From the IMG/VR virus record IMGVR_UViG_2737471833_000002: DNA of 64,000 nucleotides; one strand, written 5' to 3'. Position numbers: made by a program. Positions 24,201 to 27,200 of the stretch are shown here, piece after piece (within the stretch, counting starts at the first letter, position 1; each line of letters starts with the position of its first letter). The stretch is from a virus (lineage: Duplodnaviria > Heunggongvirae > Uroviricota > Caudoviricetes).

Positions 24201-27200
24201 ATTGCCAAAATGAACATTGAAAAATGGACTAAGGAATGTGAAAAGAAATGGCGCAAAAAGAAATGACTACTCTAACGACAGCATACTTACAGCAATTGGT
24301 ATTTTTTGCAGGCGAGGCTACTTGTCATCCTGACGCAAACTATTTATTGGAATTTGAGAGGTTAGCGTCACCCGGTATCGTTCTGGAACTGGCCCAACAG
24401 GTGCTGGCCTTGAGACAAAAAGAGCAACATGAAAGTAATACGTGTAGATTGAATTTTGAGCAGTGGCTGGAACAGCAACGCGGAAAAATCGATGTGGACT
24501 GTGGTTGTGTGTCCACTGAAACATTCATGCACTGGCTGCGGGTAGCTTACGAGGCTGGCAACTATCCGGATATTCCGGATAGTTCGGTGCCAGCGCCAGG
24601 AAAGGGCGTCACCGGTGAACGTATCCGCATTAAGCCGCATGTTTATCGCGAACTGGTTAACCGTCTCCACGATACAGCGATCAAGTGTGCTGGCACCCAG
24701 CAATTACGAGAAAGAATTAGCCGTGTTTTGGGCGACGTTATTACGCCATATCATCATAAACAAGCCGAGAAAAGCGGTCTGGAAAGGTGTCATCTTGAGG
24801 CAGCATTAAACATTAAGCCGGGGCATACGCTTGGCATTATTGATGCACTGTTGGTTCATAAGATGGCCAGGGCTTTATTGTCGTTGGTGGACGCTGGTGA
24901 TACAAGCGAGGGTGAAGTATGAGAGTTGCAGATCACATCAAACACCTTGAAAGAATTATCGAAAACGGTGAACTCTTAAGAGATCAGATGAGACGCACGG
25001 CAGAAGCCAGGGAGGCGATAATCCGCAGTCAGGCTGGTAAATTAAAGCAATTGTCAGAGATTAACACGCTATACAAGAACAGACGTAACCGGGCGGTGAT
25101 GCGGCTTCAGAAAGCACGTAATGAAATTAAATTGGTGGAGGCAAAACTGAAAAAACAGATCCAGCGTTACGATCAGCAAGATGCTTTTTATGCCGCCATC
25201 AAGGCGGCTGCTAATGAAATAGGCATCTGGAAGTTGCTGGTGGAGAAAGCAAAGACGAAGTTAAATGCCAACGAAAGCTGAACTACAGGTGCCCACCAGC
25301 ACATACAGAAAATGATTGTTTCCACATCAAGGAGATTTTAATGTTTCACTGAAACATTAAGTAAGCCAGTGCATAATTCCATTTTTTACTGACCTTAAAA
25401 GCAAAATCAAAACGATGATGAGGATAATAGCCAGAATCTGGCTAATAATAGGCGCATCTAAAAATGCACTCAGGAACTGAAAAAAAGCGTTCATTCAGGT
25501 GGTTCCTTGTCAAATGTAAAGGTGCACTTGCTCACGTTGACGTAGAAACCCAACCCCTATATAGTTGGATTCGGTGAATGAAAGTCGTTAACGTGAGCTT
25601 ACGGCACATGTTTTCGGAAAAACATCAGGGAACGGCTAATTCCTTGATGCGGGTGGGGTCTGTAATGCAGACCCTATCTATTAACGTCATGATTGCATCT
25701 CAAATTTTCTCCTTATCTTCAATTAATCTACATTCATTTCATCTGTTAGCCACCACAATATGTAGAAAATGGCCCTCTTGCAAGTGCATAACTTTGTGGA
25801 TAACTCAGGAAGGAAAAAGTGGCTTTCGCGCACCTTCGGTCAGACAAGGTGTCCGGGAAAGTCAACGCAAAGAAAAAAATTGTTAAAAATAACGTTTGTT
25901 GGAATTGTATATTTTTATCCCCTTCAATGGTTAGCATTCTATTAACATCTTTTTTTAGAGACAGAAAAACATATCGTAACAACATATATACAGTGTTAAG
26001 AGGCGAGTATTATCCTGCGGTGGGAATTCTGGGCGCTGTTAGATTCGACTTTCTCAGCAGGATTACATCGTCAACTTGCGACGTTGCCGTATGACTTTCG
26101 TGTGATAGGTGACAATGATGCGGCTAGTGAGTTACTTGTGAAGTTTTTCGGAAAAGGTTTTGTGGCCTCGGATCTTGATGAGCTACAGCAACATGAAGTG
26201 TCTAATTTGATTTTTAGCTATAGCCAATAAGCCTCCCTCCTCCATCAAGGCCACAATTTGTGACCTTAAACAATTTGTTTTCTGCTTTTTCTTATTTGAG
26301 AAAATAACGTTGTTGACAGCTAATAGGCTCATTGTTGTTATACATGCCTGTATAGATTATGACCGTAAATTATTAGCGGATTTTAAGCCATATTCACCGT
26401 TGTAGAAATTACTCATGTTCCATTCATTAGGAAGTTCTTTTCTGTCCAATGTATAGTGGCGCACGATATAACGATCTTCATCTTCTTCGATGGACAGGCG
26501 GACATAGCCAATGTGAATCACCGATACGGGCGGTGTTCGTATTGCATAGATGTCGCGGAGATATACCGGCAGCTCGACAAATGCATCAGGTGCATCTGTG
26601 ATGCTCGTTTTTTCACAGTATTCATATAACGCATCGTTGATATCGTTAAGAGATTCATGATCGTATATTTCCAGGTAATTACCGCGATCGCGATGGTACT
26701 CGATTTTAGCCATTCAAAATCCTCTGTTATCGTTTTGCATTTCTCTAATCCGGTTCAGAACTACTTCGTGCTGGACTTGGATAGCGGCTTTTTCGTTTTC
26801 AAGCCGGGCAATAGACATCTCTAATTCTTTGCTGTACCAGGCGAGCTGGGCCAGGTTCATCCGGTTGTGGTCGAGAGTTGGAGACACTTCGACGCGATCC
26901 CTTTCTTCCTGCTTTAATGAGAAGAGATTCATCTCATCCCTTGAGGAAAATTCAGCAACAATTTCTTGTTGATGATCCGGTCGCTGCGGCATCCTCGCCA
27001 GTATAAATGGCGGTTCTTTTGAAAACATGAATGACGGTTTAGACCGTGTTTTGACCCATCTAGCTTGCTGTCTTTCGGCAAGTTCACAGGCTTCATCATA
27101 GTTATCTACAAAACCAAGCACGGATGGACGGTCCCACGCGCCACCATTCAGACAATAAACAAGAATTTTCCCGTCAGGTTCTGTAACTCCATAGGGATGG

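Follow-up and report, generated by a model that had tools for sequence, protein, structure and literature searches.

A possible type I toxin–antitoxin-like module with a captured nrdA-type promoter in P1/P7-type phage-plasmids

Introduction

Type I toxin–antitoxin systems pair a small hydrophobic or transmembrane peptide, generally of <60 aa, with an antisense RNA, and the antisense promoter is typically stronger than the sense promoter. In hok/sok of plasmid R1, the small single-pass membrane toxin is made from an mRNA of ~400 nt with a long structured leader that folds back by long-range 5′–3′ pairing, and a strong constitutive promoter inside the leader drives the ~64-nt cis-antisense RNA Sok, reading away from the toxin open reading frame (ORF). 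In ldrD/rdlD of Escherichia coli, which belongs to the chromosomal long direct repeats, the antisense RNA lies opposite the 5′ untranslated region (UTR) of the toxin mRNA and not opposite the ORF. The tisB/istR and zor/orz pairs are divergent, non-overlapping genes with short complementarity in trans; in tisB/istR-1 and dinQ/agrB the toxin promoter is tied to a host DNA-metabolism signal through LexA, and the antitoxin RNA promoter is constitutive. Here we analyse a 64,000-nt stretch of DNA (the window; IMG/VR virus record IMGVR_UViG_2737471833_000002) from a P1/P7-type phage-plasmid, in which the interval 25290–25900 holds a minus-strand ORF for a 45-aa hydrophobic peptide, a host-derived nrdA-type promoter pointing at it and a near-consensus plus-strand promoter followed by a stably folding RNA sequence. 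We tentatively read this interval as a type I toxin–antitoxin-like module with a cis-overlapping antisense RNA, whose architecture would be closest to hok/sok and ldr/rdl.

The region is 99.6–99.7% identical to P7 and to several isolates labelled ‘P1’, and over its left half it is 96% identical to reference P1. P1 is heavily used and annotated, yet this interval has carried three placeholder genes since 2004, the plus-strand upfM, upfN and upfO. The reference record also lists several predicted promoters including ‘PupfN’, a DnaA-box note, the late promoter LPhot and hot. In a 1993 record (M95666) an ‘nrdA-like promoter’ and a ‘dnaA box’ are annotated on the minus strand; the 45-aa ORF is unannotated in the P1 and P7 records. 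A CRISPR interference screen found upfN and upfO to be non-essential in lytic growth, left upfM untargeted and is silent on the lysogen. The region is without mention in the P1vir RNA-seq paper.

Results

A previous inspection of this DNA, the sequence-only reading, had singled out a long, largely non-coding gap of low GC content between two convergent operons. Such a gap is indeed present: the plus-strand genes stop at 25281 and the minus-strand genes at 26357, and the GC content is 0.34–0.47 compared with ~0.45–0.53 in the flanks. Although the description as largely non-coding is correct, the gap consists of two unlike parts, a conserved compact module (25290–25900) and decayed DNA with recognisable gene remnants (25900–26356).

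The module was found in 318 PLSDB plasmids. Of 5426 complete E. coli genomes, 216 (~4%) have it; 222 of the 223 copies there are plasmid-borne, and every copy is complete. Three lineages can be distinguished: the P7 type of the window, a P1 type (~96% identity, with a 92% sub-type) and a 77% type that sits on a different, SSU5/pHXH-2-like backbone and adjoins a type I restriction-modification gene. The module is thus common to P1-like and SSU5-like phage-plasmids, and it adjoins the accessory genes phd/doc, hot and humD. A 19-mer scan of viral contigs returned 53 loci with just 19 distinct sequences, all from the three lineages; a metagenome scan gave the same three lineages and nothing further, and no match to the peptide pattern was obtained in species-representative genomes.

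Conservation within the module is uneven. Between the window and the 77% lineage the 45-aa ORF and its flanks differ at ~30% of positions, compared with ~10% in the block 25530–25717 and ~6% in the first 90 nt of this block, which hold the promoter and the 5′ half of the RNA. The promoter-through-RNA block is therefore conserved three times better than the ORF. A 17-nt insertion in the 77% lineage sits at 25717, and there the conservation ends sharply. The conserved block contains the following elements.

25537..25565, plus strand: sigma-70 promoter TTGACG-N17-TATAGT, 10/12 match to consensus, ‘PupfN’ in the P1 GenBank record
25572..25683, plus strand: candidate antisense (antitoxin) RNA of ~110 nt with three hairpins, 3′ end uncertain
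25585–25617, 25623–25649 and 25651–25679, plus strand: hairpins 1, 2 and 3 of this RNA, predicted fold
25696..25715, minus strand: invariant Shine–Dalgarno (SD)-like element and AUG in the leader of the predicted peptide mRNA, TAAGGAGAAAATTTGAGATG, at the right edge of the block

These conservation data bear directly on the view that the whole interval is a recombination scar or decaying DNA without function. Decay does describe 25900–26356, with its broken LexA-box/humD start, primase-like fragment and IS903 target in P7, and a comparison of P1 plasmids classed the interval as a highly variable region. The sequence-only reading had itself named homology to decayed remnants of known genes as an outcome that would speak against it, and such remnants are confined to this right half. 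Within 25290–25900, on the other hand, the module is intact in three lineages on two plasmid backbones, a sub-block is conserved three times better than its surroundings and the RNA fold is unusually strong. We therefore regard decay of the entire interval as highly unlikely, and for the left half the conservation pattern refutes it.

The placeholder genes do not share this conservation. The 45-aa ORF is the sole ORF of at least 30 codons that is retained in all lineages.

25464–25577 and 25578–25886, plus strand: P1/P7 placeholder-gene region and 102-aa ORF, unconserved in the 77% lineage

In the 77% lineage UpfM is absent and UpfN is truncated or absent, and the 102-aa ORF of the window is unique to the P7-type lineage. 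Any long plus-strand ORF would be thrown out of frame by a 1-nt indel and by the 17-nt insertion. The plus strand is therefore non-coding, and we rejected UpfM, UpfN and the 102-aa ORF as coding candidates. Together with upf91.3 and upf91.4 of P7, these frames look like annotation artefacts laid over the antisense strand or a non-coding RNA; upfO corresponds to the host ypaB frame within a copied nrdA upstream region. The earlier statement that no ORF follows the plus-strand promoter consequently holds in comparative terms only, as in the window itself an ATG at 25578 opens the 102-aa frame, which is absent elsewhere.

The plus-strand promoter was correctly recognised by the sequence-only reading as near-consensus. 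It had been called an orphan; the promoter is real, but it was already listed in the P1 record. A 10/12 match occurs in 36% of composition-matched shuffles of the region, and there are five such matches in the 64-kb window. The weight of the promoter comes instead from its invariance in every lineage: the −35 and −10 hexamers are identical in every copy examined, and one or two spacer bases vary.

The RNA that would start from this promoter is predicted to fold stably. For 25572–25690 the minimum free energy is −43.6 kcal/mol, compared with −27.2 ± 3.2 for shuffled sequences (z = −5.07), and none of the 200 shuffles was as low. A structured RNA had been anticipated, with two hairpins; there are three, and hairpin 3 is followed by UAUCUAUU. 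Five distinct versions of the RNA exist in all, a number that limits the power of covariation analysis. Among them, one compensatory change (U-A to C-G) and two changes from G.U to A-U fall in hairpin 3, and the stem of hairpin 2 is kept while three of its loop bases change. Variation is greatest in the linker that joins hairpins 1 and 2. In several stem pairs, a G.U of the plus strand would correspond to an A.C mismatch on the minus strand. No Rfam match (E ≤ 1) was found between 24500 and 27500.

At the right edge of the block, the short ORFs that follow the SD-like element in the leader (ATG at 25699 and 25691) end at or before 25626 and are not conserved at the protein level. In the RNAalifold model the 5′ end of the plus-strand RNA (25573–25585) pairs with an invariant AAAUUUUCUCCUUAUC element at 25703–25717, forming 12 pairs of which three are G.U. 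If the RNA reached ~25717, it would in this model close a multi-branch structure covering the leader SD-like AAGGAG.

The main alternative is that this promoter serves chiefly as a lysogenic promoter for hot, which encodes a homologue of the theta subunit, and that the RNA acts as its 5′ leader or as an attenuator. On this view the 45-aa ORF would encode a small membrane protein of no relevance here or go unexpressed, and the replacement of hot in the window would have orphaned the promoter. Indeed, hot lies ~600 nt downstream on the same strand in the P1-type and 77% lineages, the poor U-tract after hairpin 3 makes read-through plausible, and according to the title of a 2007 paper by Chikova and Schaaper, which PMC4713147 cites, hot is expressed both in lysogens and lytically. 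However, the P7-type lineage is without hot and yet keeps the block in full, transcription to the right would meet the conserved nrdA-type promoter head-on, and hot has its own late promoter directly upstream. The persistence of the ORF, its SD sequence and its hydrophobic character would also be left unexplained. On balance we judge this role improbable as the main one, although it retains appreciable weight; a role in hot expression and a role in a toxin module are not mutually exclusive and could coexist.

Control of the module by C1 or LexA was considered and rejected, as neither has a site there. The window contains 16 C1-operator-like sites, none of them between 19660 and 29792, and its only intact LexA box is at 27433–27452, between the Lxr-like gene and humD. 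Because no C1 operator or LexA box is nearby, the module could be expressed in lysogens.

The minus-strand ORF was found where the sequence-only reading had placed it.

25357..25494, minus strand: ORF for a 45-aa hydrophobic single-pass peptide, candidate toxin (P1 NC_005856 85995–86129)
25503..25508, minus strand: SD sequence AAGGAA, 8 nt 5′ of the peptide ATG

The predicted peptide, MNAFFQFLSAFLDAPIISQILAIILIIVLILLLRSVKNGIMHWLT, has a grand average of hydropathy (GRAVY) of 1.56, and its best 19-residue window, beginning at residue 15, scores 3.1, a clear transmembrane profile. In all ~78 copies examined in full, drawn from the three lineages, the frame has 45 codons and the same start and stop. 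The SD sequence of the 77% lineage is GAGGA at the same spacing, though several surrounding bases differ. Some P1-like plasmids carry the ORF as a PGAP gene call (WP_000123562.1, ‘hypothetical protein’), and this is its only public name.

Homology searches with the peptide gave nothing significant in Pfam, NCBIfam, PHROGs or PADLOC. A word-indexed protein search recovered two truncated alleles and nothing else, and an exhaustive phmmer search of 1.84 billion representatives recovered four C-terminally altered copies of the same peptide and nothing else. In none of these libraries, therefore, does the peptide have relatives outside the three lineages.

Two further observations concern the ORF. 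A few copies have an altered C-terminus, caused by insertion of IS1 after about residue 40 or by frameshifts (for example plasmid NZ_CP145648.1); these could reflect occasional inactivation of a harmful gene, or plain insertions into AT-rich DNA. In addition, codons 9–14 contain a 7-bp hairpin (GUGCAUU/GAUGCGC; 25452–25469, minus strand) with a U-rich stretch that appeared terminator-like in the scan, and a D-to-N replacement in the 77% lineage converts one of its pairs from U.G to U-A.

Tblastn also pointed to an unannotated 33-aa ORF, MVLLLDAFLSAPLLSQCAATVFLLLLIWLKKME, in a ~220-bp mobile module on IncFII plasmids of Klebsiella, Enterobacter and Citrobacter. One example is K. pneumoniae pNDM4-191773 (locus L065, 1385–1600), and L066 is a second locus; five of the six substitutions that separate two of the plasmids are synonymous. 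This ORF and the P1 peptide have the motif AFL-x-AP-[LIV][LI]-SQ in common (tblastn E ~0.1; pairwise identity 44% over 27 aa), and the 33-aa product is possibly a distant relative.

Is the 45-aa frame then a chance ORF, in a block that acts as another kind of regulatory RNA or DNA, such as a trans-acting phage small RNA or a DnaA-linked control region of the hot/humD cassette? The substitution data leave room for this. By chance, an open frame would stay open through 33 random substitutions with a probability of 0.14, the 19 replacements in the peptide equal the neutral expectation, and the ratio of non-synonymous to synonymous substitution rates (dN/dS) of the peptide frame, 0.41, does not stand out from that of two control frames. 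Moreover, the ORF, which most records leave unannotated, has diverged far more than the RNA block. Hydrophobicity, in contrast, is kept beyond neutral expectation: the GRAVY of the divergent-lineage peptide is 1.72, compared with a null mean of 1.02 (p ~0.008), a pattern that would be expected of a membrane helix selected on its character and not on its exact sequence. The SD spacing is also kept, the fully examined copies are intact with only C-terminal insertion sequences or frameshifts as disruptions, the PGAP call is independent and a promoter is aimed at the ORF. Taken together, these features make a chance frame unlikely in our estimation.

The promoter in question derives from the host. 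Positions 25758–25896 are ~93% identical over ~140 bp to a segment, annotated ypaB, that is present in all 5426 of the 5426 complete E. coli genomes and lies directly upstream of nrdA; in the orientation of the window, nrdA would be to the left, on the minus strand.

25755..25783, minus strand: nrdA-type core promoter, −35 TTGCAA (25783–25778), 17-nt spacer, −10 TATTGT (25760–25755)
25783..25803, minus strand: two DnaA boxes, TTATCCACA (25803–25795) and TTATGCACT (25791–25783), abutting the −35
25320..25748, minus strand: predicted peptide mRNA of ~430 nt with a leader of ~254 nt, start placed from the −10, both ends predicted

The DnaA boxes are invariant in all phage lineages and in E. coli, and the promoter elements are in register with E. 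coli PnrdA. The homology ends inside the −10, at window position 25758, and the −10 of the E. coli counterpart ends 114 nt before the nrdA ATG. In E. coli, NrdR has a ‘box 0’ in the −10 region and an operator, made up of the functional boxes 1 and 2, downstream of the promoter (PMC12176259). By these positions, boxes 1 and 2 are absent from the phage copy. Across the distal half of the nrdA upstream segment, the P7-type copy resembles the E. coli chromosome far more than the P1-type or 77%-type copies do, which suggests either that it has recombined with the host chromosome repeatedly or that it was captured more recently.

The nrdA-type promoter matches the consensus at 8/12 positions, compared with 10/12 for the plus-strand promoter. 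It lies 260 nt upstream of the 45-aa ORF and points at the conserved block and the ORF, and therefore the plus-strand RNA would be a perfect antisense match to part of a long 5′ leader. On the minus strand close to the ORF, no promoter for the peptide scored above the scan threshold or was convincing by eye. Folding of the predicted full mRNA gives z = −4.25. Within it are a 13-bp stem in the leader (25530–25542/25586–25598) and a 12-nt complementarity between its 5′ and 3′ parts (25322–25333/25641–25652), which is partly kept in the 77% lineage. A 3′ hairpin at the stop codon and sequestration of the SD sequence are weak (z −0.2 to −2.3) and inconsistently conserved, and were not relied on.

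On the strength of the conserved sequence features, of where the nrdA-type promoter comes from and which way it points, and of the stable folds, we infer how the two transcripts with their ends might bring about repression and toxicity, and so what the biological role might be. The weaker nrdA-type promoter, with its DnaA boxes and without the NrdR operator, would transcribe leftward from ~25748, giving an mRNA in which the structured leader precedes the coding sequence of the membrane peptide. The stronger promoter inside the leader would fire rightward and produce the three-hairpin RNA, complementary to leader nucleotides ~65–176. This RNA would keep peptide synthesis off through duplex formation, by the usual routes of RNase III cleavage or a block of ribosome loading or leader translation. 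Collision between the convergent promoters, whose predicted start sites face each other ~176 bp apart, possibly adds to the repression. Upon loss of the RNA, or with more leftward transcription, the peptide would enter the inner membrane and slow or kill the cell.

The sequence-only reading had proposed a different arrangement, a divergent, non-overlapping pair of the tisB/istR-1 or zorO/orzO kind, in which the peptide has its own proximal promoter and the RNA acts by short trans complementarity. The ORF and the plus-strand promoter are in fact divergent and 43 nt apart, and a UUCCUUG in the RNA is complementary to the peptide SD sequence. However, the predicted duplex between the RNA and the non-overlapping peptide 5′ UTR has an energy of −49.3 kcal/mol, compared with −46.1 ± 5.1 for shuffled sequences, of which 28% are as good. 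With the duplex energy at chance level, the trans-pairing model was rejected. Nor does the scan give a proximal minus-strand promoter, a LexA box is lacking and there is no match to the corresponding toxin or RNA families. We consider this arrangement very improbable. Of the proposed type I-like layout, the pairing of a gene for a small hydrophobic peptide with a structured RNA close to a promoter survives the lineage comparison; the analogy to tisB/istR and zor/orz does not.

Discussion

The 45-aa peptide has the size and hydrophobic, transmembrane character of a generic type I toxin, and on the RNA side there are an invariant strong promoter and a stable fold, with an overlap with the mRNA that hangs on the predicted transcription start. 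Among described systems, hok/sok is similar in several respects: a plasmid replicon carries the gene for a small single-pass membrane peptide, the mRNA (predicted for the module) has roughly the same length and a long structured leader, and inside the leader lies a strong promoter for a cis-antisense RNA that reads away from the ORF. The possible 12-nt long-range pairing recalls the hok fold-back. The module differs in its longer, three-hairpin RNA and in its sense promoter, which is a captured host promoter. No match to Hok/Gef was found in Pfam (E ≤ 10) or NCBIfam, or to Sok in Rfam (E ≤ 1). A mok-like frame overlapping the toxin ORF is also lacking; the leader ORF ends 132 nt upstream and varies non-synonymously between lineages.

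With ldrD/rdlD the module shares an antisense RNA placed opposite the toxin 5′ UTR. The peptide also resembles the short transmembrane Ldr toxin in its layout (N-terminal segment, ‘AP’ motif, hydrophobic helix, basic tail), a likeness that we treat as a lead only. The differences are the location on a phage-plasmid and the longer RNA, and neither the Ldr and Fst models of Pfam (E ≤ 10) nor Rdl in Rfam gave a match. The likeness to tisB/istR-1 and dinQ/agrB lies in a toxin promoter tied to host DNA metabolism beside an apparently constitutive RNA promoter, and in a position among SOS and replication accessory genes (lxr and humD, and hot in P1). In the module the signal would be DnaA at the nrdA-type promoter and not LexA, the RNA overlaps the leader in cis in place of trans pairing, and there is no family match. 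The host nrdAB promoter itself shares the DnaA boxes, the −35 TTGCAA, the 17-nt spacer and the position of the −10, and differs in its NrdR boxes 1 and 2 and in its cargo, which is phage-specific in the module. The locus thus has the defining sequence features of no known family.

Several observations weigh against a type I module. By counting and by RNAalifold, covariation among the five RNA versions is not significant (96 of 500 shuffles reach the score), and substitutions are not significantly enriched at unpaired positions of the RNA (p = 0.11). The scan gave no canonical intrinsic terminator for the plus-strand RNA or for the predicted mRNA, and the 5′–3′ pairing of the mRNA and sequestration of its SD sequence are inconsistently conserved. 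The low divergence of the block could in part reflect recombination between lineages. At the peptide level, the neutral replacement count and unremarkable dN/dS given above count on the same side. The ORF and the RNA have no mention in the literature searched, which left out PMC523184 (the P1 genome) and PMC2072811 (hot expression). Finally, P1 plasmid addiction has reportedly been mapped to phd/doc on a fragment that also bears this locus, which argues against strong post-segregational killing by the module. A type I toxin–antitoxin-like module nevertheless remains the reading we tentatively prefer.

A more specific version of it, which we hold to be doubtful, is a type I toxin gated by replication status, in which a host nrdA promoter with its DnaA boxes has been fused to a membrane-toxin mRNA and a constitutive cis-antisense RNA sets the threshold. 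By analogy, it would correspond to the LexA-gated TisB and DinQ with a different host signal, the DnaA or replication-initiation state. The peptide and RNA would then belong, with hot and humD, to a mobile replication and damage cassette that is swapped between P1-like and SSU5-like phage-plasmids.

If the module is what it appears to be, a single-copy phage-plasmid family that spreads resistance genes would carry a second, RNA-controlled toxin system beside phd/doc, and the reference annotation of P1, where upfM and upfN are unconserved, would be corrected. It would also be a clear natural case in which a mobile element has taken over a host promoter to the exact nucleotide, with the upstream sites and the −35 and −10 but without transcribed sequence, and uses it for a cargo of its own. 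Such a module would be relevant to P1-based vectors and to transduction strains bearing the region, and on validation would constitute a new toxin/RNA family with an unusual captured-promoter feature.

Flanking sequences and related loci

To the right of the module, 25900–26356 is made up of dead gene remnants, as judged by alignment. Positions 25870–26028 align with an intergenic region of pLF82-type phage-plasmids that separates the same nrdA-like segment from humD.

25897..26028, plus strand: decayed pLF82-type LexA-box/humD 5′ region; 11 nt are lost through the LexA box (near 25990), and the ATG reads ATC
26030..26230, plus strand: 3′ remnant of a primase-like gene, the last 66 codons (86% identity, E = 2e-39)
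26357–26713, minus strand: Upf93.6, phrog_5797, unknown function
26714–27298, minus strand: Lxr-like ‘LexA-regulated function’ protein, phrog_6164

The primase-like gene is intact in phage PhiR41_1 (174 aa; phrog_17952 and phrog_849, ‘DNA primase’), and in P7 an IS903 is inserted at ~26103. Beyond the Lxr-like gene lie the UmuD-like HumD (27472–27861) and Phd/Doc (27928–28535).

In the pLF82-type phage-plasmids themselves (E. coli LF82 plasmid NC_011917, locus L010, ~1000–1500, minus strand), the same nrdA-like promoter and DnaA-box segment is followed by different DNA. First comes a predicted ~75-nt transcript with a strong terminator, AAAAAGCCCAG...CTGGGCTTTTT, and after it TAAGTATCTGGCGACT is found twice as a direct repeat, together with an ORF for a 27-aa hydrophobic peptide, MVNLLFKIVPPMFAIIKAIIEYVNQRP, that has an SD sequence and a terminator of its own. 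From these features, the corresponding position in LF82 may hold another small-toxin locus that is unrelated to the module.

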